UHGV virus genome: UHGV-0040432
Origin: a virus
Strand: one strand, 5' to 3'
DNA: 39,935 bases
Shown: positions 857-38,325 of the stretch, piece by piece
How positions within the stretch are numbered: position 1 is the first letter of the stretch
Layout: every line of letters starts with the position of its first letter
Notes under the pieces: generated by a model
What the model was told of the DNA's origin: nothing
Databases searched by the model: none
What the model saw: only the letters and a program-made list of their open reading frames with translations
Position numbers and translations under genes: made by a program

Positions 857-1429
857 TTACAGGTCTCTGCTGGTGGCCGGAATCAACTTCTGCCAGATCG
901 CGGACACGTATTTTGCTTGATGTCGCGCATCGGCCAGTGCGTTATGTGCAACCCCATCGAATGGCATATCTCGCTTTGGATCGAAACCCACAACTCTGCC
1001 TAATGTGACGATGGTTCTGACGTCGTGATCGTTACAAAATTGCCACGGGCAAACCTGGCCGGCGTGCTCATATGCGCCGCGCAATATAACGTTGTCGAAA
1101 GTAGCTCCATTGCCCCAAACTTTTAAATATTTTGGGTTATCAGAATGCCGATTAATGAAATGGTTCAGTTCAGATAGGGCAGACGATATCGGCATCGCAT
1201 CATCAACACAGATTGCTGATCGCGCTTCTGAGCTTTGTCTTAACCACCACAGAATAGTGTCACCATCCGGCACCGCTCCCTGCTCCATAGCGCTTTCAAG
1301 GTTAACGGCGGTGTAAAACTCCTGACCCAATTCACCGCTTTGCGGATCGAAGAATACGGCACCAATGGAGACGATAGGGGCATTCGGTTTTTTGCCCATG
1401 GATTCAAGGTCGATCATTAAGTTGTTCAT
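857..1429 (-). CDS. DEDDh-type 3'-5' exonuclease (DnaQ-like)
   Basis: 190-aa ORF with DLESMG (Exo I D-x-E) and HNALADA (Exo III H-x4-D) motifs; overlaps downstream gene start by 4 nt. Confidence 0.7.
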   Translation of the reverse strand: MNNLMIDLESMGKKPNAPIVSIGAVFFDPQSGELGQEFYTAVNLESAMEQGAVPDGDTILWWLRQSSEARSAICVDDAMPISSALSELNHFINRHSDNPKYLKVWGNGATFDNVILRGAYEHAGQVCPWQFCNDHDVRTIVTLGRVVGFDPKRDMPFDGVAHNALADARHQAKYVSAIWQKLIPATSRDL

Positions 1430-2860: not shown

Positions 2861-3033
2861 GGAGTTTTACCTTTACGTTCCTGTTCCAGTTGCACCAGAG
2901 ACTCTTTTAATGCTGCGAACGTAGCTTCCAGTCTGGTGGCGACTTCGCGCATAAGAGGTGCATGCTTTGGTGGCAATTCAGCAACGGAGGCAAAAGCCTC
3001 AGCTACGAGTTCTTTTACCTTCATGCGGCGCAT
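2857..3033 (-). CDS. Small hypothetical protein (58 aa; below the ORF-track size cutoff)
   Basis: Own translation of the minus strand: MRRMKVKELVAEAFASVAELPPKHAPLMREVATRLEATFAALKESLVQLEQERKGKTP; fills the gap between flanking genes with ATGA overlap to the downstream start. Confidence 0.4.
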   Translation of the reverse strand: MRRMKVKELVAEAFASVAELPPKHAPLMREVATRLEATFAALKESLVQLEQERKGKTP

Positions 3034-3560
3034 TGGCGCAGTTCCACCAGTTCGTTAAAGCGATTCATGAACAGGCCATAGGCTTGACCAGGACGGAGAG
3101 GGATAACCTGAACGAGATCAGAGCAGGGAATACCTTCGAGAATTTCCCATTTCGAGCCGTCATCGATTTCCAGATCACGGCGCTCGGTAGCTAACATGGT
3201 TAGATCGGCATATTTCACGGCAGCAGCTTGTTCAAGTGAGATACCGAATTTAAAGCGGATAAGACCATCAACATAAGTTTCCATGCGTTGGTAGTCAGGT
3301 AACAGGGCTTTGAGCGGGGCAGGAATATCCTGGCAATATGCCTCCGCAGCGTCGTGCATCAGCGCTTCAAAGGCGAACTCTGGCGGTACAATCTGGCTTA
3401 CAAGCACAGAGTGCTGGGCCACGCTGTAGAATTCTGGCAGATGCCCAGCGAATCGACAGATGTTGGAAAGCGCAGTCGCGATATCCTCAACATCGATATC
3501 GTCGATTGTGGCGGTCAGGTAGTTAAATTTTTTACCGGATAATGTCTGAATGTAGCTCAT
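3021..3560 (-). CDS. HD-domain phosphohydrolase (YfdR-like 5'-deoxynucleotidase family)
   Basis: Contains H..HD motif (SVAQHS, EALMHDAAEAY). Start chosen at MSYIQ because GGAG lies 8 nt upstream; track ORF extends to 3587. Confidence 0.65.
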   Translation of the reverse strand: MSYIQTLSGKKFNYLTATIDDIDVEDIATALSNICRFAGHLPEFYSVAQHSVLVSQIVPPEFAFEALMHDAAEAYCQDIPAPLKALLPDYQRMETYVDGLIRFKFGISLEQAAAVKYADLTMLATERRDLEIDDGSKWEILEGIPCSDLVQVIPLRPGQAYGLFMNRFNELVELRQCAA

Positions 3561-3688
3561 GGTTTTCTCCATATTGGCGCGCTGCACCGCGCAGATTTTG
3601 GTTGCACTAATCCCTCGCCGGGTGGCGATAATTAATGGAATTACGCTTCAATAAATCCCCGCGGCGCCGGGGATTTAATGCAGAGCAA

Positions 3689-5922: not shown

Positions 5923-6615
5923 TCAGGCGTGGCGTTTGAATGATTGAGATTGGCTTATCATTACCTTCCCAAAAATGTAAAAACGGTGTTCGTTTGTCTC
6001 ATCCACAGACCATTCTCTATATTTTGGGTTATCCGATATCACCAACAACTTATCAGGTATCATCTGTAATCGTTTGACGTAAATTTTATCATCAAAACCA
6101 AATACATATATTCCATCACCATCGAATTCATGAATAGAGATATCAACGAAGAGAAGATCACCAGGTTCGATAGTCTCAGCCATACTGTCGCCTCGAACGT
6201 TGATTACTTTTACTTGATCTGCCGTTCTTCCGCCGAACATCGCTAGCGCACGTTCATTGTTGTATTCGATTGACCTGATGACATCAATAATATCGCTGCC
6301 TTGAATAAAGCCACCACCAGCGCTGGCACTTACATCAAGAATCTCCACTCTAAACACAGATCCATCTCCAGAATGTGGGTTACTACCACTGTATTCACAT
6401 ACAGTAGTTTTATTTCCGCCTGGAGTAAATAGATCAGCAACGCTAACGCCTAAAGCTTGAGCATATTTGCTAAGTGATTGTTCAGTAAATGACTTCTGTT
6501 TGCCGGTTTCTACGCGCGAGATGTTAGCTCCGTCGACACCAACGGCTTCAGCAAGATCAGCGATTTTTAGACCCTTCGCTGTGCGAAGTTCTCTTATGCG
6601 GTTTCCTATGTTCAT
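5923..6615 (-). CDS. cI: cI-like repressor (N-terminal HTH, C-terminal S24 LexA-type peptidase domain)
   Basis: HTH segment IRELRTAKGLKIADLAEAVGV and GDSM serine motif with downstream Lys. Start set at the ATG giving MNIGNRIREL; track ORF begins at an upstream TTG (6678). Confidence 0.8.
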   Translation of the reverse strand: MNIGNRIRELRTAKGLKIADLAEAVGVDGANISRVETGKQKSFTEQSLSKYAQALGVSVADLFTPGGNKTTVCEYSGSNPHSGDGSVFRVEILDVSASAGGGFIQGSDIIDVIRSIEYNNERALAMFGGRTADQVKVINVRGDSMAETIEPGDLLFVDISIHEFDGDGIYVFGFDDKIYVKRLQMIPDKLLVISDNPKYREWSVDETNEHRFYIFGKVMISQSQSFKRHA

Positions 6616-6635
6616 GCGTCTATTACATGTTTTTT

Positions 6636-6698
6636 TTGCGTGATGTGCAAAGCAACTTGCGCAAGTCGTACGTTCCAATTAATATGCGTATTACGCAA
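6636..6698 (+). promoter_or_regulatory. OR region: PR promoter overlapping three operator-like palindromes
   Basis: PR -35 TTGCGC (6657..6662), 17-nt spacer, -10 TAATAT (6680..6685); operators at 6636..6650, about 6655..6671 and 6684..6698. Confidence 0.6.
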
Positions 6699-7692: not shown

Positions 7693-7872
7693 GTGCGCGA
7701 ACTTAACCGAAGGTTCAAAGACCACCGCGGGGTGCCTGTCCGTTTTATCCGCTGGGAACCAGAAACACAACGCGTTATCTACCTGCGTGATGGCTACCCG
7801 CACGAATGCTTCAGCCCACTTGAGCATTTCAGGCAAAAGTTCAGGGAGATAACGGACGATCATGAGCACTAA
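7693..7872 (+). CDS. Small hypothetical protein (59 aa, GTG start)
   Basis: Own translation: VRELNRRFKDHRGVPVRFIRWEPETQRVIYLRDGYPHECFSPLEHFRQKFREITDDHEH; GGAGGG lies 10 nt upstream. Competes with the compositionally odd track ORF 7469..7852. Confidence 0.3.
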   Translation: MRELNRRFKDHRGVPVRFIRWEPETQRVIYLRDGYPHECFSPLEHFRQKFREITDDHEH

Positions 7873-8719
7873 ATTAACCGGCTACGTATGGGATGGTTGC
7901 GCGGCGTCGGGCATGAAGTTGTCTAGTGTCGCGATCATGGCTCGCCTCGCTGATTTCAGCAGCGATGAGGGCGTGTGCTGGCCGTCCATTGAAACTATTG
8001 CTCGTCAGCTTGGCGCAGGGCCGAGCACTATCAGAACGGCAATCGCAAAGCTTGAAAAAGATGGCTGGCTCACGCGTACACAGCGCCGTAATGGAAACCG
8101 TAATGCGTCGAACGTGTACCGCCTGAATGTGGCGAAACTTCAGGCTGCTGCATTTTCTCAACTGTCAGATTCTGACACGTCAAAATCTGACGCATCAAAA
8201 TTTGACGCCTCAAAAACTGACCCGTCGAAATCTGGCAAAAATGGCGGTTTTGACCCGTCAGAATCTGGCGGGGATCCGTCAGTAAAATCAAAACAAGATC
8301 CACAATTAACTTCAAAACCCTCTTGTCCGGTTGCAGCGCAACCAGACCCTGAAGTCGTGATTACCGACCAGGCAATTTTGGTTCTGACCCATTTGAACCA
8401 GATCAGCGGATCCCGGTATCAGAAATCAAAAACATCCCTGGAGAACATCCGCGCCAGACTGCGTGAGGGATACAGCGTTGCAGACCTGCAACTGGTTATC
8501 GACCTGAAGCATGAGCACTGGCACGAGAACGACGAGCAGTACCAGTACATGCGGCCGGAAACTCTGTTTGGCCCGAAGAAATTCGAGAGCTATCTGCAAA
8601 GCGCTACCCGCTGGGATCAGAAGGGACGGCCTAAACGAGCTGACTGGGGCGCGAAAAAGCGCGATGTGATGGCTTTTGGTCCGGTTGATACAACGATTCC
8701 AGAGGGGTTCAGAGGATGA
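7862..8719 (+). CDS. Replication initiator (lambda O-like organisation: N-terminal HTH, iteron-encoded linker, conserved phage C-terminal domain)
   Basis: 285-aa ORF; tandem DNA iterons inside the gene encode the SKSDASKFDASKTD linker; C-terminal pattern recalled as the conserved phage replication C-terminus. Confidence 0.65.
   Translation: MSTKLTGYVWDGCAASGMKLSSVAIMARLADFSSDEGVCWPSIETIARQLGAGPSTIRTAIAKLEKDGWLTRTQRRNGNRNASNVYRLNVAKLQAAAFSQLSDSDTSKSDASKFDASKTDPSKSGKNGGFDPSESGGDPSVKSKQDPQLTSKPSCPVAAQPDPEVVITDQAILVLTHLNQISGSRYQKSKTSLENIRARLREGYSVADLQLVIDLKHEHWHENDEQYQYMRPETLFGPKKFESYLQSATRWDQKGRPKRADWGAKKRDVMAFGPVDTTIPEGFRG
8173..8289 (+). repeat. Putative ori iterons: four or five tandem 15-bp repeats followed by an AT-rich stretch
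   Basis: TGACACGTCAAAATC, TGACGCATCAAAATT, TGACGCCTCAAAAAC, TGACCCGTCGAAATC, then TGACCCGTCAGAATC after an 18-bp gap, then a partial copy. Confidence 0.6.
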
Positions 8720-9597
8720 CGTTAAACAAATATTGCCAGGCGCTGGCGGCACTACGTAGCCAACCAGCCCACGAACTGAAAGAAGTTGGCGATCAGTGGC
8801 GGACACCGGATCTGCTTTTCTGGGGTATCAACGCGCTATTTGGTCCATTGATTCTGGACTTGTTTGCTGACGACGACAACGCGAAGTGCCCGGCATGGTA
8901 CACCGCCGAAGATAACGCGCTGACGCAGGACTGGTCTGAACGTCTGGCAGAACTGGGCGGCGCTGGTTATGGCAACCCTCCGTATAGCCGTTCTCAGTAC
9001 CACGAGAAGCAGGCGATCACCGGCATGACGCACATCATGAAGTACGCAGCAGCCCAGCGCGAGAAGGGCGGTCGCTATGTATTCCTGATAAAAGCCGCGC
9101 CGAGTGAAACGTGGTGGCCGGAAGATGCCGATCACATTGTATTCATTCGCGGGCGCATTGGGTTCGATCTGCCTGTGTGGTTTGTACCTGCTGACGAAAA
9201 ACAGAAACCCACCAGCGCGTTTTTTGCCGGTGCCATAGCTGTATTCGATAAGTCATGGCGTGGTGAGCGGTTCAGCTATATCAACCGCACAGAACTGGAG
9301 GCAAAAGGTCGGGCATTTATGGCGCTGGCTCAATTCGCTGTTGGCAAAGAGCCGACAATTGCAATGCGGGCACCCCAGGAGCCAGTCATACCATCGGAAA
9401 CTGAGTCACGTATCTGGCCTCTCGAGGTTGGTCTGGTGTTTAACCAGGTGGAAGGCGTTGCCGTATTGAGTGAGGCTCAGCAGAACAAGCTGAAAGCCAA
9501 CATCAATCAACTCTGGCTGGAACGAACTGCCACCAGCGAAATTATCACAATTGCGCGTGGTCTTGTTGGCAGCATGCAGGGGGTAATCCATGCGTGA
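8716..9597 (+). CDS. DNA N6-adenine methyltransferase (phage Dam-like)
   Basis: 293-aa ORF with GNPPY catalytic motif; ATGA overlap with the rep gene. Confidence 0.7.
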   Translation: MTLNKYCQALAALRSQPAHELKEVGDQWRTPDLLFWGINALFGPLILDLFADDDNAKCPAWYTAEDNALTQDWSERLAELGGAGYGNPPYSRSQYHEKQAITGMTHIMKYAAAQREKGGRYVFLIKAAPSETWWPEDADHIVFIRGRIGFDLPVWFVPADEKQKPTSAFFAGAIAVFDKSWRGERFSYINRTELEAKGRAFMALAQFAVGKEPTIAMRAPQEPVIPSETESRIWPLEVGLVFNQVEGVAVLSEAQQNKLKANINQLWLERTATSEIITIARGLVGSMQGVIHA

Positions 9598-11524
9598 GAT
9601 TATCGTTGATAACTTTGCTGGTGGCGGTGGCGCATCAACGGGTATTGAACTGGCGATCGGACGCAGCGTGGATATTGCGATCAACCACGACGAAAACGCC
9701 ATTGCGATGCACAAGACGAACCACCCGGACACACTGCATTACTGCGAATCCGTATTTGACGTGGATCCGGTAGCCGCCACCGGAGGTAATCCTGTTGGGC
9801 TGGCATGGTTTAGCCCGGACTGCCGACACTTCTCGAAGGCAAAAGGCGCAAAGCCTGTGAAAAAAGAGATACGCGGTCTGGCCTGGATTGTTCTGCGTTG
9901 GGCACTGGCGAAGCGACCGCGTGTGATGATGCTGGAGAACGTGGAAGAGTTCAAAACGTGGGGACCGCTGCTGGCCGATGAAATGCGTCCGGATCCTGCC
10001 CGCACTGGCGAAACATTCAATGCATTTGTCGGCATGCTGTCCACAGGCATTCCTGCTGATCACCCGGCACTGGCTGAGGTTTGTGAGTTTCTGTCTATCG
10101 AAAGAGGTAGCGAGCAGGCGCAAAAGCTGGTGGATGGGCTGGGATATGATGTTGATTATCGCGAACTACGCGCGTGTGATTACGGCGCGCCGACGATCCG
10201 CAAACGCTTCTTCATGGTTATGCGTTGCGATGGCTGCCCAATCCAGTGGCCTGCTGTCACCCATGGGGATCCTAAGTCTCTGGAGGTGCAGAGCGGCAGG
10301 CTGATGCCATGGCGTACCGCTGCGGAATGTATCGACTGGAATGTTTCGGCCCTGTCCATCTTCGACCGCAAAAAACCGCTGGCGGAGAACACTCTGAAGC
10401 GGATCGCGCGCGGCATACAGCGCTTTGTTATCGAAAGTGCATCGCCGTTTATTGTGAAGTGCAATCACACGAGCTCAAAAAATGTGTATGACGCTTTTCG
10501 CGGACAGTCACTGAATGAGCCATTACAGACCATTACTAAAAAACTCGGCTACGCGTTAGCCGTTCCACACCTGACAAAATTCCGCACTGGCGCAACCGGG
10601 CAGCCCGTTACCGAACCTGTCCCGACGGTAACCGCTGGCACATCAAAACGCCCGGGTGGGAATGGGCATGCACTCGGGATTGTTGAGGCTGCACTGACGC
10701 CATTCCTGGCGGGTAATGGTGGTAGTGAATACCAGGCTAAACCGCGCCCGCTGGATAAACCTGCTCATACCATTCTGAAGCAATCCCGCGCCTGTCTTGT
10801 TGCGCCAGTGATAGCCCGCCAGTTTGGGGCCAGCGTAGGCCATCGGGCAGACGAACCGAGCGCAACCATCACCGCTGGCGGTGGCGGTAAATCTCAACTG
10901 GTAACGTCTACGCTGATCCAGATGGGTTATGGCGAACGACCTGGACAAGAACCGCGTGTGCTGCGGCTGGATAACCCGCTGGGGACCGTTACTGCAGGTG
11001 GAAATAAATTCGCGACTGTGAGCGCGTTCCTGGCGAAACACTACGGCGGTAACTACACGGGACCGGGTGTCAGTATGGATGAACCCGCGCACTCAGTGAC
11101 CACTGTCGACCATCATGCAGTAGTTGCCTCTCATCTGGTGAAACTGCGTGGAACATGCCGCGACGGGCAACGCCTTGATGTTCCCATGCCAACAATCACC
11201 GCTGGTGGCCAACACGTGGGTGAGGTACGCACATTTCTTGAGACGTATTGCGGGGAAAGTGACGATGAATGGCTGGTAACGATCGATGGGGTTAAATACC
11301 AGATCGTTGATATCGGAATGCGCATGTTGCAGCCGCATGAACTCTACAAAGCGCAGGGCTTCCCGGATGGATACGTTATTGATCAGGACTACCGTGGAAA
11401 TCGCTATGCAAAAGATAAGCAGGTAGCCCGCTGCGGTAATGCGGTACCACCACCATTCGCCAGGGCGCTGGTGGAGGCAAATCTTCCGGAACTGTGTGCA
11501 GTGCAACAGCAGGAGGTGGCATGA
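9590..11524 (+). CDS. DNA cytosine-C5 methyltransferase with extended variable region
   Basis: Motif I DNFAGGGG, catalytic PDC (SPDCRHFS), ENV, RKRFF and C-terminal GNAV; 644 aa with four T[VI]TAGG-type repeats in the variable region. Confidence 0.8.
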   Translation: MREIIVDNFAGGGGASTGIELAIGRSVDIAINHDENAIAMHKTNHPDTLHYCESVFDVDPVAATGGNPVGLAWFSPDCRHFSKAKGAKPVKKEIRGLAWIVLRWALAKRPRVMMLENVEEFKTWGPLLADEMRPDPARTGETFNAFVGMLSTGIPADHPALAEVCEFLSIERGSEQAQKLVDGLGYDVDYRELRACDYGAPTIRKRFFMVMRCDGCPIQWPAVTHGDPKSLEVQSGRLMPWRTAAECIDWNVSALSIFDRKKPLAENTLKRIARGIQRFVIESASPFIVKCNHTSSKNVYDAFRGQSLNEPLQTITKKLGYALAVPHLTKFRTGATGQPVTEPVPTVTAGTSKRPGGNGHALGIVEAALTPFLAGNGGSEYQAKPRPLDKPAHTILKQSRACLVAPVIARQFGASVGHRADEPSATITAGGGGKSQLVTSTLIQMGYGERPGQEPRVLRLDNPLGTVTAGGNKFATVSAFLAKHYGGNYTGPGVSMDEPAHSVTTVDHHAVVASHLVKLRGTCRDGQRLDVPMPTITAGGQHVGEVRTFLETYCGESDDEWLVTIDGVKYQIVDIGMRMLQPHELYKAQGFPDGYVIDQDYRGNRYAKDKQVARCGNAVPPPFARALVEANLPELCAVQQQEVA

Positions 11525-11907
11525 AACTTGTGCTCCCGTTCCCTCCAAGCGTGAACACGTACTGGCGCGCCCCTAATAAGGGGCCGCTGGCCGGTCGTCA
11601 CCTCATTAGCGCTGATGGTCGTAAATACCAGAGCGCTGCCTGCGTGGCGATCATTGAGCAATTACGACGTCTCCCGAAGCCATCGACTGAACCGGCAGCG
11701 GTAGAAATCACTCTGTACCCGCCGGATGCGCGCCGCCGGGATATCGATAATTACAACAAAGCCCTGTTTGACGCGCTGACGCATGCGGGTGTCTGGGAAG
11801 ACGACAGCCAGATTAAGCGCATGCTGGTGGAGTGGGGACCCGTAGTGCCGAAAGGTCGGGTAGAGATAACGATCAGCAGATATGAACCGGCGGGTGCAGC
11901 CGCCTGA
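11521..11907 (+). CDS. rusA: Holliday junction resolvase RusA
   Basis: 128 aa; N-terminus MKLVLPFPPSVNTYW and RRRDIDNYNKALFDALT match RusA as recalled; ATGA overlap with the upstream gene. Confidence 0.8.
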   Translation: MKLVLPFPPSVNTYWRAPNKGPLAGRHLISADGRKYQSAACVAIIEQLRRLPKPSTEPAAVEITLYPPDARRRDIDNYNKALFDALTHAGVWEDDSQIKRMLVEWGPVVPKGRVEITISRYEPAGAAA

Positions 11908-11920
11908 TATGGAGAAAAGT

Positions 11921-12604
11921 ATGAGCCAATTAGCAACAACAGCATTAACCATGTCCAGCAGCGATATTGCTGAGCTGGTGGAATCACGACATGACCATGT
12001 TAAACGGTCCATTGAACGCCTGGCAGAGCGCGGTGTTATTGAACTCCCCCCAATGGGGGAAGTTAAAAATCACCTCAATCAGTCGGTATCGGTTTATCTG
12101 ATAGGGAAGCGGGACAGTTATATCGTTGTCGCGCAGCTGTCGCCGGAGTTTACCGCGCGTCTGGTTGATCGCTGGCAGGAGCTTGAGCAGGCACAGCAGC
12201 AGACGATTCCTCAATCATTCTCTGAAGCCCTACGTCTTGCAGCTGACCTTGCTGAACAAAAACAGCAGTTGACTAACGAACTGGCTGCCGCGGCGCCGAA
12301 GGTAGCGTTTGTTGATCGGTACTGTACAGCCAGTGGGTCAATGTCATTCCGCCAGGTGGCAAAACTGCTTAAGGCCAAAGAGCCAGATCTGCGGTTATTC
12401 CTCCTTGAGAACGACATCATGTATCGCCTTGGCGGAACGATGACCCCACGGCATCAGCATATTGATGCGGGCCGTTTTGAAGTGAAAACCGGCACATCCG
12501 TAACCTCAAATCATGCATTCAGCCAGGCACGTTTCACGGCGAAAGGCGTGCGCTGGATTGGTGGACTGTGGGCAGAACACATTGCCAGGGGGCAGGTCGC
12601 GTGA
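11921..12604 (+). CDS. Rha-family phage regulatory protein / antirepressor
   Basis: N-terminus MSQLATTALTMSSSDIAELVESRHDHVKRSIERL typical of Rha; start at the ATG preceded by GGAGAAAAG. Confidence 0.7.
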   Translation: MSQLATTALTMSSSDIAELVESRHDHVKRSIERLAERGVIELPPMGEVKNHLNQSVSVYLIGKRDSYIVVAQLSPEFTARLVDRWQELEQAQQQTIPQSFSEALRLAADLAEQKQQLTNELAAAAPKVAFVDRYCTASGSMSFRQVAKLLKAKEPDLRLFLLENDIMYRLGGTMTPRHQHIDAGRFEVKTGTSVTSNHAFSQARFTAKGVRWIGGLWAEHIARGQVA

Positions 12605-13596
12605 GAGCTCTGCTTACCCCCGAGATCGCCCATCGTATGGGGATTGTGCTGTTCCGTCCCGGTGCGGAATTGATGCACCTCTTCATGCGTGGTCGCGTTC
12701 TGCTCGAGCCTGAACCAGAAGAAATGGCGTCATTCAGTACCGGGGCTGTTCCGGCAGCCATTCAGCCGCTGGCTGATGATCCGGTAATGCGGCAGGTCTT
12801 CGAGAATGAGAGGGTTATTCAGCGTGCCGGTGGGCTTCCTTCCCTTGAGCAATGGTTGAGTAATCGGTTTGAATGCCAGTGGCCACATTCAACGTGGCAC
12901 GACAAGAACTTCACAACAATGCGGCACCCACCAGGAAGTATTCGCCTGTGCTGGCATTGCGATCACACTTTGTCGGGGCAGCATACCGAACAGCTTGCAG
13001 GTATAGCGGCAGGAAACCTGGTATCCTGGATTCTGGAAGTCATTCGGCGTGATTCTGGTTTTCCCGAGTCGCATATCCTGACGCTTCCGGAACTGTGCTG
13101 GTGGATGGTCAGAAACGACCTGGCTGATGTTATTCCGGAAAGCGTTGCGCACAAAGGGCTGCGCCTTCCGGATGAGAAGATCCGTTCTGTCATGAGGGAA
13201 AGCGACATAGTGCCTTCCTCGTCAGCAACCAGACTCGTGCAGGAGAAGGCGAAGAAGATCCTCACGCTCTCTGTTGATCCGGAGTCGCCAGAGTCTTTCA
13301 TGCTCAGGCCAAAACGTCGCCGCTGGATAAATGAGACGTACACCCGCTGGGTTAAAACACAACCCTGTGAGTGTTGCCGACGGCCAGCAGATGATCCGCA
13401 CCATATCGTAGGGCACGGTATGGGGGGGACAGCAACAAAAGCCCATGACCTCTTCGTGATCCCTCTGTGCAGAGAGTGCCACGACGAGTTACACGCCGAC
13501 GTACCGGCATTCGAGCAGAAGCATGGTACGCAGCTTGAGCTGCTACTGCGTTTTATGGATCGGGCGCTGGCGATCGGCGTAATTGCGAAAGCTTAA
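12601..13596 (+). CDS. Phage protein with C-terminal HNH-like zinc-binding nuclease domain (DUF968-like)
   Basis: C-terminal CECC...HHIVGHG...CRECHDELH motif; GTG start overlapping the upstream stop; the start is uncertain (an in-frame ATG lies at 12637). Confidence 0.5.
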   Translation: MRALLTPEIAHRMGIVLFRPGAELMHLFMRGRVLLEPEPEEMASFSTGAVPAAIQPLADDPVMRQVFENERVIQRAGGLPSLEQWLSNRFECQWPHSTWHDKNFTTMRHPPGSIRLCWHCDHTLSGQHTEQLAGIAAGNLVSWILEVIRRDSGFPESHILTLPELCWWMVRNDLADVIPESVAHKGLRLPDEKIRSVMRESDIVPSSSATRLVQEKAKKILTLSVDPESPESFMLRPKRRRWINETYTRWVKTQPCECCRRPADDPHHIVGHGMGGTATKAHDLFVIPLCRECHDELHADVPAFEQKHGTQLELLLRFMDRALAIGVIAKA

Positions 13597-14307
13597 GTGT
13601 ATGGAGCGCAAAGAAGCATGAATCACCAAGACCTGAATTTTGTAAGAATAGAATTGCGCCGCGCGCTACCTGACCTCTCTGGGGGAACAAAAGGGCAGCT
13701 TGAGGCTTTCAGTGAACACCCACCAGCAGACAAAAATGCCACCCCGCGCCGTGGAATTCATCTCGTCGAACTCGAAGGAGATAAGGGGCCACGCTTTGTT
13801 AACTCACTTTCCGCGCCACTGTATGTGCTGGAAACACGCAGCCGCCGCAGGCCAATGCCGCCGATAAAAGATGCGGAATTTGAGTCCGCGCCGTGGCGTA
13901 GGGCAGTGTCCGCGCTTAGTGGATACCAGCAGGCCTGGTTGCGGTACTGCTACGGTTTTGACCTTAGCTATAAGCACCAGGTAATGATGTGTGAATACGT
14001 CTGGAAAACTTATCAGAAATGCCTGGGTGAAAACTCGCTTCAGGAGCGTGTAGTAAAGAAACTGATAGGTCTGGTATGGCTGGCAGGGCAGGAAATTGCC
14101 GCAACCAGAAATAATGAAACCTATAAAGACTATGCTGGTGCAGCGTTGGCCCGCATGGTTAGCGTTGACCGTTCAACATGGTTGCGTGTTTATTCAGGGC
14201 ACTGGGCTGGGTTAAAGGCCGCTTTTATCCAGCTTGACGAATCTGCGTTGGCCATGGCACTTGAATACTATGAGGAAGAAGAAACCCTCAAAGTGGCAGA
14301 AATGTGA
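13597..14307 (+). CDS. Putative late-gene antiterminator Q
   Basis: 236-aa ORF in the canonical Q position (after nin-like genes, directly upstream of a strong terminator and the lysis/structural genes); Cys-containing central region. Confidence 0.5.
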   Translation: MYGAQRSMNHQDLNFVRIELRRALPDLSGGTKGQLEAFSEHPPADKNATPRRGIHLVELEGDKGPRFVNSLSAPLYVLETRSRRRPMPPIKDAEFESAPWRRAVSALSGYQQAWLRYCYGFDLSYKHQVMMCEYVWKTYQKCLGENSLQERVVKKLIGLVWLAGQEIAATRNNETYKDYAGAALARMVSVDRSTWLRVYSGHWAGLKAAFIQLDESALAMALEYYEEEETLKVAEM

Positions 14308-14398
14308 ACTAAATTTCACTATCTCCTTCAAACGCGCTTGCAAAATGCAACAAAATAAGCCATATTTGAAGCATATTTGATATGTTGCCAAAGTTTTA
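14308..14398 (+). promoter_or_regulatory. Candidate late promoter (PR'-like) region
   Basis: Best hexamer pair is TTGCAA-17 nt-CATATT at 14338..14366, which is imperfect; assigned mainly by position between the Q-like gene and the terminator. Confidence 0.35.
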
Positions 14399-14427
14399 TA
14401 AACCCGCCGATGAGCGGGTTTTTTTAT
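14399..14427 (+). terminator. Strong intrinsic terminator (tR'-like)
   Basis: AAACCCGC-cgatga-GCGGGTTT hairpin followed by T6. Confidence 0.8.
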
Positions 14428-14547
14428 GGCAAATCAGTCATGCACGGCGCATAAAGGCGCTGGCGGTCGCAGAATGGAATTCTTCTCTTGCTGGTATCAC
14501 CAACCAGAGTTATCTGTATGTCACGCAACTAATTTTAGGTAAAAGAC

Positions 14548-14739
14548 ATGCTAAATCAGGAAGATATGACAGAAACGGCAAAGGCTGTTTTCAATGAACT
14601 AAGCGATAAACCAGCAACGGCTGGGGAGATTGCACAGAATACCCACCTCAGCCGCGAACGTTGCCAGCTCATACTCACGCAGCTGGTGATGGCTGGGTTA
14701 TCTGATTACCAGTTCGGATGTTATAAACGCCTCCAGTAA
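14548..14739 (+). CDS. Small hypothetical protein, possible DNA-binding
   Basis: 63-aa ORF downstream of the tR'-like terminator; HTH-like segment PATAGEIAQNTHLSRERCQLILTQL. Confidence 0.4.
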   Translation: MLNQEDMTETAKAVFNELSDKPATAGEIAQNTHLSRERCQLILTQLVMAGLSDYQFGCYKRLQ

Positions 14740-14889
14740 TGGGGGCTTTCTGCTGTGGAAATGGGCGGCTGGTGGGTGTTAGCGCACCCGGCCAGCCATC
14801 AGCTCATGCTTTCAGGTCACAAGCTAACCAAGGCCCACTGCTTTAGCGCAAAAGCAACGTGAGCCTATCAGAGTTATGCTTACTGATCT

Positions 14890-15942
14890 ATGAAAAATAC
14901 TGTAAAAATAAACAGTGCTGAGTTAATCAACGCTGATAGCCTGCATTACGTCGCCACCCTCCCGGATAACTCTATTGATCTGATAGTTACGGATCCGCCG
15001 TACTTCAAAGTGAAGCCCAACGGCTGGGACAACCAATGGAAGGGGGACGAGGACTACTTACGCTGGCTTGATAGCTGTCTGGCTGAGTATGCTCGCGTTC
15101 TTAAATCTGCTGGCAGCATTTACCTGTTTTGCGGTCACCGACTGGCCTCAGATATAGAGATTATGATGCGTGCCCGGTTCAACGTTTTGAATCACATCAT
15201 TTGGGCAAAACCATCGGGCCGTTGGAATGGATGTAATAAAGAAAGCCTGCGTGCGTACTTTCCATCTACGGAACGGATTTTGTTTGCTGAGCACTATCTT
15301 GGGCCGTACACAGGTAAAGAGGATGTTTACGAAAGGAAAAGCACAGAGCTAAAGCAGCACATTATGACGCCGCTGATTGATTACTTCCGTAATGCCCGTG
15401 AATCACTGGGTGTCAGCTCGAAAGAAATAGCTGAGGCAACCGGAAAGAAAAACATGGCGTCACACTGGTTTGGTGCAAGCCAATGGCAACTACCAAATGA
15501 AGTGGACTATAGAAAATTGCAGGAACTGTTCACGCGGATCGCTATCGATAAGCACATTCAGCAGAAGCTTGAACATCCTCACCATCAGCTGGTAGCCACC
15601 TATCAGTCATTAAACCGCAAGTATTCAGAATTGCTGGAGGAATACAAAACCCTCCGGCGCTGCTTCTCTGTTTCCGCTCTTGTTCCGTATACCGACGTAT
15701 GGACGCATAAGCCTGTGCAGTTTTATCCAGGCAAACATCCATGCGAAAAACCTGCCGACATGCTGAAGCAGATCATTAGCGCCAGCAGCAGACCAGGGGA
15801 TATCGTTGCCGATTTCTTTATGGGCTCAGGTTCAACTGTGAAAGCTGCAATAGAACTTGGTCGTCGGGCGATCGGGGTAGAACTGGAAGCTGACAGATTT
15901 ATTCAGACCACCGAAGAGGTGGAAAAATTGATCAAAACATAA
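14890..15942 (+). CDS. DNA methyltransferase, beta-class N6-adenine/N4-cytosine type
   Basis: DPPY motif near the N-terminus and FFMGSGST (FxGxG) near the C-terminus, the permuted order typical of beta-class amino-methyltransferases. Confidence 0.75.
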   Translation: MKNTVKINSAELINADSLHYVATLPDNSIDLIVTDPPYFKVKPNGWDNQWKGDEDYLRWLDSCLAEYARVLKSAGSIYLFCGHRLASDIEIMMRARFNVLNHIIWAKPSGRWNGCNKESLRAYFPSTERILFAEHYLGPYTGKEDVYERKSTELKQHIMTPLIDYFRNARESLGVSSKEIAEATGKKNMASHWFGASQWQLPNEVDYRKLQELFTRIAIDKHIQQKLEHPHHQLVATYQSLNRKYSELLEEYKTLRRCFSVSALVPYTDVWTHKPVQFYPGKHPCEKPADMLKQIISASSRPGDIVADFFMGSGSTVKAAIELGRRAIGVELEADRFIQTTEEVEKLIKT

Positions 15943-16088
15943 CGATCATCACGCCTCTGTGGATGTGGTGATCACCATTTTCAGGCACCGGGAATCATCC
16001 TTACTTTTATTTGAACAAAAGAGCCCGGTTGCCTGATTCCACATCCCCTCATTTCTGAGAGGAATCACAGCAATTAAGAGGGGGCTAA

Positions 16089-16475
16089 ATGTCCGATCCG
16101 ATTTCCGGTACTGGGCTGGCTGGTGGTGTCCTGACGGGAGCCAGCGTCTATGGATTTCTGTCCGGAACCGATTATGGTGTGGTGTTTGGCGCATTTGCCG
16201 GGGCTGTATTTTACATTGCAACCGCAGCGGATCTAAGTGCAGCACGCCGACTGGCATATTTTCTGGTTTCGTATATCGCGGGGATCCTTTGTTCCGGGCT
16301 GGTGGGTTCAAAGCTGGCTCAGGCTACCGGCTACAGTGATAAACCACTGGATGCCATTGGCGCCGTAATCGTTTCTGCTTTAGCCGTCAAAATCCTGACG
16401 TTCCTGAATAATCAGGATGTCGGCTCGCTGGTGGCGCTGATAACGCGCCGGGGAGGTTCAGGTGGTACAAAATGA
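16089..16475 (+). CDS. Holin
   Basis: 128-aa hydrophobic protein with several predicted transmembrane segments; strong AGAGGGGG Shine-Dalgarno; directly upstream of the endolysin. Confidence 0.65.
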   Translation: MSDPISGTGLAGGVLTGASVYGFLSGTDYGVVFGAFAGAVFYIATAADLSAARRLAYFLVSYIAGILCSGLVGSKLAQATGYSDKPLDAIGAVIVSALAVKILTFLNNQDVGSLVALITRRGGSGGTK

Positions 16476-19043: not shown

Positions 19044-21161
19044 ATGCGACAGGCCACGGCGGCGGAGCTAAGAAAAAACACTGCCGGGATCATCAGAGCA
19101 CCGCGTCGAATGCCTGTAGCCGAAGCCGTACATAAATATATGCGTGTTCCGGTCGGCGTGGGTAACTCCGTTGAGTGGGATCCTAATCTTGCCCCTTATG
19201 TTGTGGAGCCGATGAACTGCCTGGCATCACGCGAATATGATGCTGTCATTTTTGTTGGCCCTGCCCGAACGGGTAAAACCATTGGTCTGATTGATGGCTG
19301 GGTGGTGTACAACGTTGTCTGTGATCCGTCTGACATGCTCATCATTCAGATGACGGAAGAAAAAGCGCGCGAACACTCAAAAAAACGTCTGGCCCGAACA
19401 TTTCGTGTCAGCCCGGAGGTTGCATGCCGGCTGAGTCCTTCACGCAATGACAACAACGTGCATGACCGGACTTTCCTTGCCGGGAACTACCTGAAGATAG
19501 GCTGGCCGTCTATCAACATCATGTCGTCCTCAGATTTTAAGTGTGTGGCTCTGACGGATTACGATCGCTTCCCAGAAGATATCGACGGGGAAGGGGACGG
19601 ATTTTCGCTTGCTTCAAAACGTACCACCACCTTTATGTCGGCGGGGATGACGCTGGTCGAGAGTTCACCGGGCAGGGAAATAACCAATACGAAGTGGCGG
19701 AGAAAGTCACCTCACGAAGCCCCTCCCACGACCGGGATCCTGTCTTTATATAACCGCGGCGATCGTCGTCGCTGGTACTGGCCATGTCCACATTGTGGGG
19801 AATATTTCCAACCGGCCATGGAGGCGATGACAGGCTACCGGGAAACGTCTGACCCGGTAAAAGCCAGTGAAGCGGCGCATATTGAATGTCCGCATTGTAG
19901 CGGCATGATTACCGCCGACAGGAAGCGGGAACTGAACGGAAAGGGTGTCTGGTTGCGAGAGGGACAGACTATCGACCGTGAGGGCAACATCACCGGAGAA
20001 GCCCGACGCTCGCGCATTGCCTCGTTCTGGATGGAAGGACCAGCGGCGGCATACCAGACATGGGCGCAACTGGTTTACAAATTACTGACGGCGGAGCAGG
20101 ACTATGAGGCCACCGGCAGCGAAGAAACGCTCAAGACGGTAATTAATACGGACTGGGGGCTGCCTTATCTTCCCCGTGCAGCCAGTGAGCAGCGACGTGC
20201 TGACGTGCTGATGCTGCGGGCAGAAGACTATGGCAAACGACTTGTGCCGCCGAAAGTCCGTTTTCTTCTGGCTTCGGTGGATGTGCAGGGTGGGAAGAAG
20301 CGCCGTTTTGTCGTCCAGATCATCGGGTACGGTGAAAACGGCGAACGCTGGCTGGTGGACCGCTATAACATCCGCCAGTCCCTGCGTTGTGATGAAAATG
20401 GTGAGGCACAGCAGGTGCATCCCGGATCCTATCCGGAAGACTGGCAACTGCTCATCACGGATGTCCTCGAAAAAACCTATGCGTTGCAGTCAGACCCTTC
20501 GCGACGGATGCCCATTCTTGCAATGGCTGTCGACAGCGGCGGGGAAGATGGGGTTACGGATAACGCCTATAAATTCTGGCGCCAGTGTCGTCGTGACGGA
20601 CTGGGTAAACGGGTTTACCTGATAAAAGGTGACAGCACCCGACGCCAGAAAATCATTACTAAAACGCACCCTGACAACACAGGCCGAAGCGATCGCCGGG
20701 CGGATGCGCGTGGTGAGGTTCCGGTATATCTGTTGCAGACAGACCTGCTAAAAGATCAGCTCAGTAACAACCTTGAGCGTGAAACACCCGGTGCCGGGTA
20801 TATCCATTTTCCTGACTGGCTGGGGGAGTGGTTCTACGAAGAACTGACCTACGAAGAACGCGGTACGGACGGAAAATGGCGCAAACCCGGAAAAGGTAAT
20901 AACGAAGCCTTTGACCTTTTCTGTTATGCCCACGCCGTCGCTGTCCTGCGTGGTTATGAAAAAATCCGGGACTGGGAACAGCCCCCGGCATGGGCAGCTG
21001 CTCAGGAGAGTAATTCAAACATCATTGACGGGGAACGCCCCAGGGAGATTGCTGTGAAAAAAGCGGTACCTGTACGTTCGTCTCCTGTTTCTGTAACTGA
21101 ACAGCCCAGCCCGCTTTCTGGTGGCTGGCTGGGTGTCAGTGACAACGGAGGCTGGCTGTGA
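19044..21161 (+). CDS. Terminase large subunit (lambda gpA-like)
   Basis: 705 aa; Walker A VGPARTGKT; size and position as in lambda A. Confidence 0.85.
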   Translation: MRQATAAELRKNTAGIIRAPRRMPVAEAVHKYMRVPVGVGNSVEWDPNLAPYVVEPMNCLASREYDAVIFVGPARTGKTIGLIDGWVVYNVVCDPSDMLIIQMTEEKAREHSKKRLARTFRVSPEVACRLSPSRNDNNVHDRTFLAGNYLKIGWPSINIMSSSDFKCVALTDYDRFPEDIDGEGDGFSLASKRTTTFMSAGMTLVESSPGREITNTKWRRKSPHEAPPTTGILSLYNRGDRRRWYWPCPHCGEYFQPAMEAMTGYRETSDPVKASEAAHIECPHCSGMITADRKRELNGKGVWLREGQTIDREGNITGEARRSRIASFWMEGPAAAYQTWAQLVYKLLTAEQDYEATGSEETLKTVINTDWGLPYLPRAASEQRRADVLMLRAEDYGKRLVPPKVRFLLASVDVQGGKKRRFVVQIIGYGENGERWLVDRYNIRQSLRCDENGEAQQVHPGSYPEDWQLLITDVLEKTYALQSDPSRRMPILAMAVDSGGEDGVTDNAYKFWRQCRRDGLGKRVYLIKGDSTRRQKIITKTHPDNTGRSDRRADARGEVPVYLLQTDLLKDQLSNNLERETPGAGYIHFPDWLGEWFYEELTYEERGTDGKWRKPGKGNNEAFDLFCYAHAVAVLRGYEKIRDWEQPPAWAAAQESNSNIIDGERPREIAVKKAVPVRSSPVSVTEQPSPLSGGWLGVSDNGGWL

Positions 21162-37298: not shown

Positions 37299-37367
37299 GA
37301 ACGTTTACGAAAATGAATATTTCAGGTGCAAATGGCATGATCCCGGCTTTTAGCGAAGGGATTGATC

Positions 37368-37919
37368 ATGCTGATAGGCTATGTACGGGTGTCAACAAAT
37401 GACCAGAACACAGCATTGCAGAGAAACGCGCTTGAGTGTGCAGGATGTGAGCTGATATTCGAAGACAAGATAAGTGGAAAAACGTCAGACCGACCAGGCT
37501 TAAAAAAGGTGCTCAGAACATTATCAGAAGGTGACACGCTGGTGGTCTGGAAGCTGGATCGTCTCGGTCGTAGTATGCGGCATCTTGTCGTGTTGGTCGA
37601 AGAAATGAGGGAACGCGGCATAAACTTCCGTAGCCTGACCGACAGTATAGATACCTCCACACCGATGGGACGCTTTTTCTTTCATGTCATGGGAGCGCTT
37701 GCGGAGATGGAGAGAGAGCTTATTGTTGAGCGAACACGGGCTGGTTTAGCAGTTGCGCGCGAAGATGGTCGGATCGGCGGCAGACGGCCAAAGTTAACTG
37801 CTGAAGAGTGGGCTCAGGCTGGAAGGTTGATTGCTGCTGGAGAGTCACGAAAACGTGTGGCTATAATTTATGATGTAGGGGTGTCAACGCTATACAAAAA
37901 ATTTCCTGCGCGGTGTTGA
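37368..37919 (+). CDS. Serine recombinase, DNA invertase (Hin/Gin/Cin/Pin family)
   Basis: N-terminal MLIGYVRVSTNDQ with catalytic Ser; C-terminal HTH; GAAGGG Shine-Dalgarno 8 nt upstream. Confidence 0.85.
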   Translation: MLIGYVRVSTNDQNTALQRNALECAGCELIFEDKISGKTSDRPGLKKVLRTLSEGDTLVVWKLDRLGRSMRHLVVLVEEMRERGINFRSLTDSIDTSTPMGRFFFHVMGALAEMERELIVERTRAGLAVAREDGRIGGRRPKLTAEEWAQAGRLIAAGESRKRVAIIYDVGVSTLYKKFPARC

Positions 37920-38047: not shown

Positions 38048-38290
38048 TTAATCTGAAACCAGCCACATATCAGCCTCTTCAAACATTTCCTGAACAGTAC
38101 GGCTTATCTGTTCCTTCTCATGCTTGCTGGCGTCAGTGTTGATCGCCGGCAGTGTCATCATCGGTTTAACCCGAACATCAGCATCGGGGAAGATCCGGTG
38201 AACCCTCTTACTCAATTCGCCCAGAATGATATCTTTTGCACCAGGCAGACCATCAAAATTCCTTTTGTCATAAACGAGTTCCACGAACAT
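38048..38290 (-). CDS. dinI: DinI-like protein (DinI/MsgA family)
   Basis: 80 aa; pattern LxGELSKRxHRxFPDADVRVKP ... QEMFEEADMWLVSD matches DinI as recalled. Confidence 0.7.
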   Translation of the reverse strand: MFVELVYDKRNFDGLPGAKDIILGELSKRVHRIFPDADVRVKPMMTLPAINTDASKHEKEQISRTVQEMFEEADMWLVSD

Positions 38291-38305
38291 TGCTTATTGC
38301 TCCTT

Positions 38306-38325
38306 TACTGGATGGATATACAGTA
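38306..38325. promoter_or_regulatory. LexA (SOS) box between divergent dinI-like and umuD'-like genes
   Basis: TACTGGATGGATATACAGTA, i.e. CTGG-N8-ACAG, one mismatch from the CTGT-N8-ACAG core. Confidence 0.65.

Follow-up and report, generated by a model that had tools for sequence, protein, structure and literature searches.

The window, a stretch of 39,935 nucleotides (UHGV virus genome UHGV-0040432), is an almost complete lambdoid prophage of the SfV/ST64B/phiNP type. It encodes three DNA methyltransferases, each read from the + strand and free of internal stops on ORF translation: a Dam-like N6-adenine enzyme, a C5-cytosine enzyme with a cassette array in its variable region, and a beta-class N6-adenine enzyme (Table 1). 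The original prediction of three methylases of different classes was borne out by profiles and motifs, which placed NPPY, PDC/ENV and DPPY followed by FxGxG where they had been expected. By gene order, all three genes lie within lytic-cycle transcription units of the prophage.

Table 1. Features of the methyltransferase region and its surroundings (positions in the window)
Feature	Position	Strand	Details
Phage-type (Dam-like) N6-adenine DNA methyltransferase	8716..9597	+	293 aa; PF05869/TIGR01712; catalytic domain ~aa 1-210 plus C-terminal extension
Unannotated ~60-aa domain, C-terminus of the Dam-like protein	9406..9582	+	WPxEV...LKxxINxxWLE; PHROG 16025 match only
C5-cytosine DNA methyltransferase	9590..11524	+	644 aa; catalytic core aa 1-285 + 568-644
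Seven tandem TRD-like cassettes	10448..11233	+	motif VIII-IX interval; 33-45 aa each, aa 287-548
Cassette 0	10448-10558	+	
Cassette A	10559-10693	+	
Cassette B	10694-10807	+	
Cassette C	10808-10909	+	
Cassette D	10910-11023	+	
Cassette E	11024-11128	+	
Cassette G	11129-11233	+	
Degenerate remnant of terminal 'H' cassette	11234..11290	+	FLETYCGESDDEWLV; PxxTxT core lost
RusA resolvase	11521-11907	+	ordinary nin-region gene
Rha/KilAC antirepressor	11921-12604	+	ordinary nin-region gene
DUF968/HNH protein	12601-13596	+	ordinary nin-region gene
Late-gene antiterminator Q	13618..14307	+	PF06323 E 1e-36; gene call in identical public contig
Strong intrinsic-terminator-like hairpin, tR' position	14400..14427	+	8-bp stem, 5 G-C pairs, then TTTTTTT
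63-aa winged-helix-like ORF directly 5' of the beta-class methylase	14548..14739	+	weak Pfam DprA_WH/TrmB matches, PHROG 331
Beta-class N6-adenine methyltransferase, M.EcoGII family	14890..15942	+	350 aa; PF01555 E 1.2e-43, aa 29-336
Holins	16089 onward		3' of the beta-class methylase
Terminase	19044-21161		usual phage nuclease

Consecutive genes of the early-right operon overlap by 4 nt (replication protein/Dam-like), 8 nt (Dam-like/C5) and 4 nt (C5/RusA). The stop codon of the Dam-like gene and the start codon of the C5 gene overlap (ATGCGTGA), and these two genes are translationally coupled. The beta-class gene follows Q and the hairpin and precedes the holins, downstream of the late terminator as had been proposed. 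The description of this site as a moron slot is right as to position; no independent promoter was detected by a promoter scan so insensitive that the expected late promoter was missed as well. A faint lysogenic promoter would lie below the reach of such a scan.

Pfam and PHROGs searches matched no restriction endonuclease in the ORFs of the left arm, nin region and lysis region, a scan that stopped short of the head and tail ORFs at ~21-37 kb. This agrees with the earlier claim that a restriction endonuclease is absent. The neighbors of the methylases in the scanned ORFs are the replication protein, RusA, the antirepressor, the DUF968/HNH protein, Q and the holins; RusA, DUF968/HNH and the terminase have usual phage functions. 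A Type II restriction-modification system appears unlikely, since no restriction endonuclease family matched beside the methylases in these ORFs, although an enzyme too divergent for these profiles would escape such a scan. A role as cognate restriction enzyme for the genes at 11521..13596 was likewise rejected, RusA, the antirepressor and DUF968/HNH being usual nin-region content. The prophage of E. coli Nissle 1917 (EcN), which shows 97% identity over the aligned 70% of the region, keeps DUF968 and RusA, and the C5 gene is absent from it.

The Dam-like protein matched Pfam PF05869 (Dam; E 3.9e-44, 150.7 bits against a cut-off of 28.1) and NCBIfam TIGR01712 (phage_N6A_met; 206 bits against a cut-off of 97), and carries GNPPYS at aa 86-91, with NPPY at aa 87-90. 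Profile match, NPPY motif and nin-region site are shared with the other members of this family (T1 Dam, HP1 Dam, M.EcoVT2Dam, SfV 'dam' and ST64B Sb44). Identity was 75-79% to SfV dam, ST64B sb44 and the phiNP mtase, and only 33% to M.EcoVT2Dam, the nearest enzyme of known GATC specificity among those compared. At 33% identity GATC specificity is not transferable, and the target is uncertain. GATC occurs at 201 sites spread evenly over the window (observed/expected 0.88), and its methylation would bring little gain in a Dam+ host. M.EcoVT2Dam (175 aa) also lacks the extra C-terminal domain of ~60 aa, for which a Pfam search gave no match. At least 47 of 72 species loci have this domain immediately 5' of the C5 gene, as a stand-alone protein (22 loci) or fused to an NPPY Dam (17), a DPPH methylase (5) or an MT-A70 methylase (1). 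Neither this small conserved domain nor the C5 variable region with its seven cassettes had figured in the original prediction.

In the beta-class enzyme DPPY (aa 35) precedes FMGSGS (aa 310), the motif order of its class. It is 75% identical over the full length (349 aa) to M.EcoGII, as compared with a query machine-read from a supplement that contains a few reading errors; 75% identical to the enzyme of phage 1720a-02; and 83% identical to the reconstructed ancestor Anc291 over aa 1-237, a span that takes in most of the target-recognition domain (TRD). M.EcoGII reportedly methylates adenines non-specifically, is silent in lysogens and does harm when expressed (Murray et al. 2018, PMC5778455), and non-specificity is retained in Anc291 and SUPREM. 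The likeness to M.EcoGII and M.EcoGI of E. coli O104:H4 prophages extends to near-equal length (349 vs 350 aa) and a shared DPPY-TRD-FxGxG order, and the M.EcoGII-like gene of phage 1720a-02 occupies the same slot between Q and lysis or cargo genes, again with a small upstream ORF. About a quarter of residues are unlike those of M.EcoGII, however, many of them in the central TRD, and we infer non-specificity for the prophage enzyme by homology. The 63-aa ORF has a counterpart of 83% identity ahead of the M.EcoGII-like gene of phage 1720a-02 and is also present in EcN, phiP27 and SfV; it may be a partner or regulator of the methylase.

The C5 enzyme matched Pfam PF00145 (E 4.1e-20) and contains motifs I, IV, VI, VIII, IX and X in canonical order, including FAGGGG (aa 9), SPDCRHFS (aa 75-82), ENV (116), RKR (204), MRMLQPHELYKAQGFP as motif IX (aa 577-592) and GNAVPPP (616). 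The catalytic Pro-Cys of motif IV reads PDC in place of PC. The core was modeled by AlphaFold with pLDDT above 90, and Foldseek matched it to DNMT1/MET1, 3g7u, M.HaeIII and M.HhaI; the predicted structure confirms a C5 methyltransferase fold. The enzyme missed the cut-off of NCBIfam TIGR00675 ('dcm'; 54.1 bits against 100.65, with the match limited to aa 5-122), and on this score a Dcm orthologue was rejected in favor of a divergent subfamily. A Salmonella enterica cluster of 1124 members matches the protein at 98% identity, and among 5426 complete E. coli genomes only 13 carry the gene. The family comprises 2559 clusters at E<1e-30 and crosses phyla, with members in enterobacteria, Paenibacillus, Sporomusa, Pseudomonas and many phages.

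The cassette array occupies the interval between motifs VIII and IX, the usual seat of C5 target-recognition domains. Each cassette consists of a strand, a Gly-rich loop and a [D/E]xPxxT[VIL]T core, and a cassette HMM recovered six copies in the C5 enzyme (i-E 3e-12 to 5e-18) plus a weaker seventh. At the place of the degenerate H remnant, phiNP, ZF40 and a Bacillus phi105 record have an intact H cassette (FLxKYYG...PLxTVTTxDRFGLV). Cassettes were typed in 270 proteins, with a distant set of 150 representatives at 50% identity. Among close homologues of 570-700 aa, entire cassettes are cleanly gained or lost, yielding 16 different architectures; natural variants without A, B, D or 0, or with an added F or type 34, are full-length and conserved as judged from sequence. 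The 150 representatives carry 0-12 cassettes per protein, of ~100 types in shuffled order. No type is repeated in 139 of the 150, and all 150 architectures are different.

By sequence and by analogy with the enzymes of Bacillus phages SPR and phi3T, the cassettes may be read as an array of multiple TRDs. The Bacillus phage C5 enzymes (M.SPRI, M.Phi3TI, M.SPbetaI and M.H2I; Trautner and colleagues) are also solitary and phage-borne, with one catalytic core. They too have short modules of ~40 aa in tandem between motifs VIII and IX, with a PxxT[LVI] core, and independent loss or gain of modules would be a further likeness. M.SPbetaI, a true two-specificity enzyme, contains exactly two such cores (SPTLTTMGGGH and EPAFTVNTIDRHGV), and type-specific cassette HMMs gave weak matches that fell repeatedly on these two TRD cores. 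However, motif IV is FPC in the Bacillus enzymes and SPDC in the prophage enzyme, which belongs to a different sequence family, and a two-sequence BLASTP comparison with M.SPbetaI gave short, weak matches only (best E 0.006). The Bacillus enzymes have two or three modules, whereas the putatively multispecific prophage enzyme has seven and its relatives up to 12. TRDs in the Trautner papers reportedly measure 38-51 aa. To our knowledge, nobody knows how multiple TRDs alternate at one catalytic site, the Bacillus enzymes included.

Similarity of the cassettes to the genuine SPbeta TRDs was not significant (hhalign E 0.3, on the core of the SPbeta GCNGC-TRD), cassette profiles did not match an M.HhaI sequence, and two AlphaFold runs gave no structural support for cassettes 0-E (pLDDT 22-59). 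The absence of significant similarity to proven TRDs would suit an arrangement in which the cassettes are not independent but build one large DNA-binding surface, such as a beta-meander clamp, with a single long, degenerate or near-non-specific target, or else bind ssDNA or RNA. Short strands modeled at the cassette borders could, at low confidence, pair into one sheet; the retention of H in 106 of the 150 representatives, usually in last position, suggests a fixed structural role for that cassette at least; and the M.EcoGII-type partner demonstrates that phages evolve non-specific methylases. We nevertheless consider a single surface unlikely. Removal, insertion and reordering of units at a dN/dS of ~0.05 are not expected of one integrated domain, and the near-absence of repeated types within a protein is untypical of structural repeats and is predicted by selection for distinct specificities. 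With the cassettes taken as separate TRDs, we tentatively suggest, as an idea somewhat short of probable, that 'hyper-multispecific' phage cytosine methyltransferases make up a very large cross-phylum family with the C5 enzyme among them, a family of which we found no published description. Its members would string up to a dozen shuffled cassettes of ~40 aa from a pool of ~100 types, and the upstream ~60-aa domain would be a new accessory subunit.

The layout of Dam-like and C5 genes, Q and beta-class methylase is also that of phiNP, an inducible Citrobacter phage, and of 8 further species loci. In phiNP (OR565852) the order is replication gene, N6A methylase, C5 methylase, Q, small ORF, beta-class methylase and holin, with identities of 79% (N6A), 70% (C5) and 83% (beta-class); its C5 enzyme of 575 aa bears another cassette set, 0-B-C-E-G-H. 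The adenine methylase pair is common in SfV-like phages, both enzymes being present in SfV, cdtI, mEp460 and the EcN prophage, and the C5 gene is absent from most E. coli relatives. Each methylase was compared with homologues from five other species. At unsaturated synonymous sites, dN/dS was 0.09-0.15 for the Dam-like gene, 0.04-0.07 for the C5 gene and, where measurable, 0.03 for the beta-class gene, indicating strong purifying selection on all three. No inactivating lesions were seen in ORF integrity, catalytic motifs or dN/dS against these homologues.

From their sequence and placement, the three solitary methylases probably modify phage DNA as it replicates in the induced cell, and genomes would be packaged already protected from the restriction enzymes of the next host. 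Such self-protection of progeny DNA is the best reading because of the lytic-operon placement and the 75% identity of the beta-class enzyme to the lysogen-silent M.EcoGII. As gene order and coupling suggest, derepression would switch on the early-right operon, with the replication protein, the Dam-like enzyme, the coupled C5 enzyme and RusA. The single C5 catalytic core could then bring any of its seven cassettes of ~35-45 aa to the major groove, and with seven alternatives on one core several unrelated short targets would be methylated. This is the logic of the multispecific SPR, phi3T and SPbeta enzymes of Bacillus phages, with a much longer array. Antitermination by Q past the hairpin at 14400-14427 would finally yield the M.EcoGII-type enzyme together with the lysis genes; its homology is established, and its predicted product is adenine methylation largely or wholly independent of sequence. 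All three genes would be expected to be off in the lysogen. A 2025 review describes this strategy of temperate phages as a 'Trojan horse'. Against this reading, heavy m5C and m6A would expose the phage to modification-dependent nucleases such as McrBC, McrA and Mrr, and the C5 gene is rare in E. coli.

The original prediction had offered two functions, of which anti-restriction self-protection is supported: M.EcoGII and Anc291, to which the beta-class enzyme is so similar, are both experimentally non-site-specific, and the slot is that of phage 1720a-02. The other, that the methylases act as morons in the lysogen, placing prophage-specific methylation on the host chromosome and changing host expression, was not upheld and appears very improbable. 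Related phages do fill the slot of the third gene with stx and other cargo genes, and one prophage methylase that does affect its host is the 16S rRNA-directed MT-A70 enzyme of Stx phages. However, two of the genes are coupled within an early lytic operon, the third lies behind a strong, Q-dependent terminator, M.EcoGII is silent in its own lysogen and damaging when expressed, and STEC lysogens with M.EcoGI/II and VT2-Dam homologues show GATC and CTGCAG motifs only. Somewhat less remote, but still improbable, is a role in phage DNA transactions (replication or packaging timing, strand discrimination, mismatch repair avoidance) rather than in anti-restriction. The location of the Dam-like and C5 genes between the replication gene and RusA, the frequent and evenly spread GATC sites, and the precedent of P1, in which Dam-type methylation is required at pac, are consistent with this role; according to the 2025 review, packaging in P1 depends on GATC methylation, and control of the viral cycle may be the task of many orphan phage methylases. 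Yet a non-specific adenine enzyme and a many-cassette C5 enzyme are ill suited to site-specific regulation, and the dispensability of the C5 gene in close relatives such as the EcN prophage, together with freely variable cassette content, is more in keeping with an arms race than with a fixed regulatory site. Least credible of all is that the genes are decaying relics without current function, for example of a lost restriction-modification system. Although no cognate nuclease was found in the scanned ORFs, the C5 homologue of Enterobacter wuhouensis L010 has an apparent premature stop, and the terminal H cassette is degenerate here, the intact ORFs with all catalytic motifs, the dN/dS of 0.03-0.15, the near-identical copies in over a thousand database sequences and the conserved layout in an inducible phage all argue against decay.

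The methylase trio as such is ordinary, as solitary phage methylases are a recognized means of restriction evasion and two of the three belong to described families. Multispecific methylases have been a textbook oddity of a few Bacillus phages, whose enzymes contain two or three recognition domains. The 2025 review credits the multispecific strategy to Bacillus phages only. Judged by its sequences, the C5 family seems to apply this logic on a larger scale, with seven cassettes here, up to twelve elsewhere and ~100 types. If so, one C5 protein would shield phage DNA from many restriction enzymes at once, and the natural cassette combinations would form a ready library for the cassette-to-DNA recognition code of C5 methyltransferases. 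Prediction of C5 methylase targets from sequence is a long-standing unsolved problem; it would become open to direct test with natural proteins that are one cassette apart. Together with an M.EcoGII-type partner, such C5 enzymes would influence the passage of prophages across the restriction barriers of the Enterobacterales, and would also affect the behavior of phage DNA in McrBC or Mrr cloning hosts.

All three methyltransferase genes were found as uninterrupted ORFs on the plus strand, and each belongs to the class for which it had been named in the original prediction, with Pfam matches and sequence motifs in agreement. The Dam-like protein, which carries NPPY, scored 206 bits (cut-off 97) against the NCBIfam equivalog TIGR01712, 'phage N-6-adenine-methyltransferase'. 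The C5-cytosine enzyme contains FAGGGG, SPDCRHFS, ENV, RKR, the motif IX stretch MRMLQPHELYKAQGFP and GNAVPPP, and in the third enzyme DPPY precedes FMGSGS, the motif order of the beta class. No inactivating lesion was evident, and comparison with homologues from five other species gave dN/dS values of 0.03 to 0.15 for all three genes, at saturated synonymous divergence. These data indicate that the three genes are functional and not relics.

Positions of the methyltransferase genes and other features in the window
Feature	Position	Strand	Details
Rv2179c-like 3'-5' exoribonuclease	857-1429	-	early-left region
Predicted deoxyribonucleoside 5'-monophosphate phosphatase	3021-3587	-	early-left region
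cI-like repressor	5923-6678	-	
Replication protein	7862-8719		
Dam-like methyltransferase	8716-9597	+	293 aa; PF05869, E 3.9e-44; NPPY at aa 87-90
Domain of ~60 aa in the Dam-like protein	9406-9582		residues ~231-289
C5 methyltransferase	9590-11524	+	644 aa; PF00145, E 4.1e-20
Q	13618-14307		
Strong terminator-like hairpin	14400-14427		8-bp stem and T run; ~90 nt past Q
Winged-helix-like ORF	14548-14739		63 aa
Terminator-like hairpin	14729-14746		after the 63-aa ORF
Beta-class methyltransferase	14890-15942	+	350 aa; PF01555, E 1.2e-43
Terminase	19044-21161		
Hin/Gin-type serine invertase	37362-37919		beside tail-fibre genes
UmuD-like S24 peptidase ORF	38120-38758		between invertase and integrase
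Integrase	38791-39885	-	

A nearly complete lambdoid prophage makes up the window; it also encodes RusA, an antirepressor and a DUF968/HNH protein, then two holins, an endolysin, and head and tail genes ahead of the tail-fibre invertase and integrase. The Hin/Gin-type invertase adjoins the tail-fibre genes, pointing to an invertible host-range segment. A SocA/Panacea-domain gene lies on the source contig just beyond the window (L003 1-455). The 20-kb stretch around the C5 gene has an identical copy in the public assembly GCA_003471655.1. Of the complete E. coli relatives, the nearest is a prophage of strain Nissle 1917 (EcN), with 96.8% identity over 70% of the region; it differs in lacking the C5 gene and in carrying a 439-aa version of the Dam-like protein.

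The absence of an adjacent nuclease, part of the original prediction, was borne out: no restriction endonuclease family was detected among the ORFs of the left arm, nin region and lysis region. The nucleases present in the window, namely RusA, the DUF968/HNH protein and terminase, have standard phage functions. The DUF968/HNH protein was rejected as a cognate restriction enzyme, being a standard nin-region gene that occurs also without the C5 gene; both RusA and DUF968 are found in the EcN prophage. Examination of palindrome avoidance in the window revealed only the usual enterobacterial biases, and GATC was not avoided.

Over its full length, the beta-class enzyme shared 75% identity with M.EcoGII (sequence taken from the supplement of the SUPREM paper, with a few machine-reading errors). 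It also shared 75% identity with its phage 1720a-02 counterpart, which is named as very similar in the M.EcoGII paper (Murray et al. 2018, PMC5778455), and, across aa 1-237, 83% with the reconstructed ancestor Anc291. Homologues at 75-83% identity occupy the same place in SfV, phiP27, mEp460, cdtI, Stx2 phages and phiNP. M.EcoGII methylates adenine in any context, is unexpressed in its own lysogen and is harmful upon expression (PMC5778455), and non-site-specific activity is kept in both Anc291 and SUPREM. By sequence, the window enzyme is a new member of this family, and there are good grounds to infer that it methylates adenine non-specifically late in the lytic cycle. Directly before the gene lies a 63-aa winged-helix-like ORF whose product may control the non-specific methylase or act as its partner. 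Phage 1720a-02 has an ORF of 83% identity at the equivalent position, and the ORF is present also in EcN, phiP27 and SfV.

The Dam-like enzyme was 75-79% identical to the products of the 'dam' genes of SfV, SfII, ST64B (sb44) and phiNP, and 33% identical to M.EcoVT2Dam, a family member with a documented GATC target. GATC is thus a reasonable guess, and not a conclusion, for the target of the window enzyme. Many of these PF05869 Dam-type genes are named 'phosphoadenosine phosphosulfate reductase' in RefSeq (for example in NC_003444 SfV, NC_004313 ST64B and NC_009514 cdtI). Since the Dam-like protein aligns only to the C-terminal positions 284-489 of the 495 in PHROG 33262, this label probably stems from PAPS-reductase-Dam fusion proteins and appears to be a propagated misannotation, wrong for these Dam genes. 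In the EcN version (L001 3992-5311), the same catalytic domain, 93% identical, is separated by an insertion of ~150 aa from the same small C-terminal domain.

The replication gene overlaps the Dam-like gene by 4 nt, the Dam-like gene overlaps the C5 gene by 8 nt (ATGCGTGA), and the C5 gene overlaps rusA by 4 nt; together they make up one translationally coupled block in the early-right operon. The third gene was confirmed in the moron slot downstream of the late terminator, the slot that carries stx in Stx phages. Because it follows Q and the strong terminator-like hairpin, with the 63-aa ORF before it and the holins after it, the beta-class gene is placed in the late transcript. A scan of 13500-16300 for sigma-70-like promoters returned none, and overlooked even the expected late promoter, rendering it uninformative either way.

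The original prediction read the nin-region pair and the late gene as serving either anti-restriction self-protection or epigenetic modification of the host in lysogens. The first of these readings is supported by homology and context. The second is not supported, given the coupling to the early operon, the position in the late transcript and the silence of M.EcoGII in its lysogen, and the placement of the genes does not suggest lysogenic expression. In published work, STEC lysogens carrying M.EcoGI/II homologues displayed no additional methylation motif, and a 2025 review describes both M.EcoGII and Mom as silent in lysogens.

The C5 enzyme has a canonical catalytic core (AlphaFold pLDDT >90), and a Foldseek search of the PDB with this core recovered DNMT1, MET1, 3g7u, M.HaeIII and M.HhaI, confirming the C5 fold and nothing further. 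From motif VIII (aa 204) to motif IX (aa 577), the enzyme spans ~370 aa, of which residues 287-548 form seven tandem cassettes (0, A, B, C, D, E and G) of 33-45 aa each. Every cassette combines a [D/E]xPxxT[VIL]T core with a hydrophobic strand and a Gly-rich loop. An eighth, H, is a remnant without the core motif, which is kept in phiNP, Pectobacterium phage ZF40 and a record titled Bacillus phage phi105.

Comparison of homologues revealed that whole cassettes are gained, lost and reordered. Close homologues (570-700 aa, 78-98% identity) differed from the window protein by clean whole-cassette deletions or insertions, with 16 distinct architectures among 120 proteins. Natural variants separated by one or two cassettes include P0064 (without A), P0015 and P0039 (without D), P0102 (without B and D) and P0003 (with an additional F). 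An exhaustive search of 1.84 billion representatives yielded 2559 clusters at E<1e-30. Among the best 150 of these, proteins carried 0-12 cassettes (mode 6-7), all 150 architectures were different, and no type was repeated within the protein in 139. Single-linkage clustering merged all cassettes and was replaced by average linkage on HMM-aligned columns, which gave ~100 types. Order was shuffled among the same 150, as in one representative homologue, P0124 (0-D-E-C-G-like-H, against 0-A-B-C-D-E-G in the window protein). Cassettes and catalytic core were about equally conserved (57-64% and ~60%, respectively), a comparison biased by the definition of types.

The family extends across Enterobacterales, Paenibacillus, Sporomusa, Pseudomonas and many phage genomes, the Paenibacillus, Sporomusa and Pseudomonas members being among loci L075-L089. 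The ZF40 homologue has 717 aa, with an extra N-terminal extension of ~70 aa. The phi105-titled record (KY197768, L006 1501-2820) encodes a family member of ~440 aa, ~50% identical, with three cassettes only (D-G-H), recognizably of the same types as the enterobacterial ones. In Enterobacter wuhouensis (L010 7001-8932), a 91% identical homologue has an apparent in-frame stop after ~452 codons, reflecting either a pseudogene or a sequencing error.

In C5 methyltransferases, the target-recognition domain (TRD) is located between motifs VIII and IX. Several TRDs in tandem are known only from the multispecific methylases that temperate phages of Bacillus encode. Because position, size, conserved core, apparent separability and the single copy per type all fit, we consider with moderate confidence that the cassettes are independent TRDs. 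In the main rival explanation, the cassettes would together build a composite surface for DNA binding whose one specificity is degenerate or relaxed. Exactly two cores of a comparable kind, SPTLTTMGGGH and EPAFTVNTIDRHGV, are present in M.SPbetaI, a genuine two-specificity enzyme (sequence from the phage record). When the cassettes were compared with its TRDs by profile and HMM, no hit reached significance, and the weak hits landed on these two cores. No match was obtained between the cassettes and M.HhaI. AlphaFold2 with a diverse alignment of 143 sequences gave a confident core and pLDDT of 40-59 over cassettes 0-E; a rerun on close homologues, in an alignment that was mostly collinear, did worse (22-35 over aa 286-545), and neither run yielded a usable model of the array. 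Full-text literature searches turned up neither an account of this C5 family nor multi-TRD enzymes beyond Bacillus, and no papers on phages Eeyore and Flotzy; the 2025 review credits Bacillus temperate phages alone with the multi-TRD strategy.

The ~60-aa domain at the end of the Dam-like protein (consensus WPAEV...LKxHINRMWLE...) lies outside the methylase domain and matches no Pfam family. Among loci L010-L089, examined just upstream of position 7001, the domain was present in the ORF ending at the C5 start in at least 47 of the 72 species-level loci with enough upstream sequence. In 22 loci it stands alone (~85 aa), in 17 it is fused to NPPY Dam, as in the window, and other fusions join it to a DPPH-type methylase (5 loci) or an MT-A70 methylase (1 locus). 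Across these varied contexts it is therefore this domain, rather than Dam, that constantly accompanies the C5 gene. We suspect that it is a putative accessory or regulatory partner or subunit of the C5 enzyme. The EcN Dam has the domain even though no C5 gene lies next to it, and the homologues retrieved with the domain as query were all fragments and brought no annotation. ZF40 differs in that gp20 (L007 779-1255), encoded upstream of its C5 homologue, is a 158-aa protein with no more than weak class-I methyltransferase hits, and not a PF05869 Dam.

The adenine-enzyme pair is widespread across SfV-like phages. Of 5426 complete E. coli genomes, ~1000 contain a match to at least part of the 7.2-kb region, in most cases of low identity. 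Within this species the C5 gene is rare (13 of the 5426, ~81% nucleotide identity), and it is frequent in Salmonella, Citrobacter, Klebsiella, Enterobacter and Kluyvera; speculatively, its rarity could reflect the cost of m5C-marked DNA in McrBC/McrA hosts. phiNP, an inducible phage of Citrobacter rodentium, has the full trio in the same order, as do 8 of the ~65 species loci that had sufficient flanking sequence. Collectively, two of the three methylases, the Dam-like and beta-class enzymes, are new members of known families. The third, the C5 enzyme, seems to be a new and greatly expanded version of the idea behind multispecific phage methylases, accompanied by a conserved partner domain.
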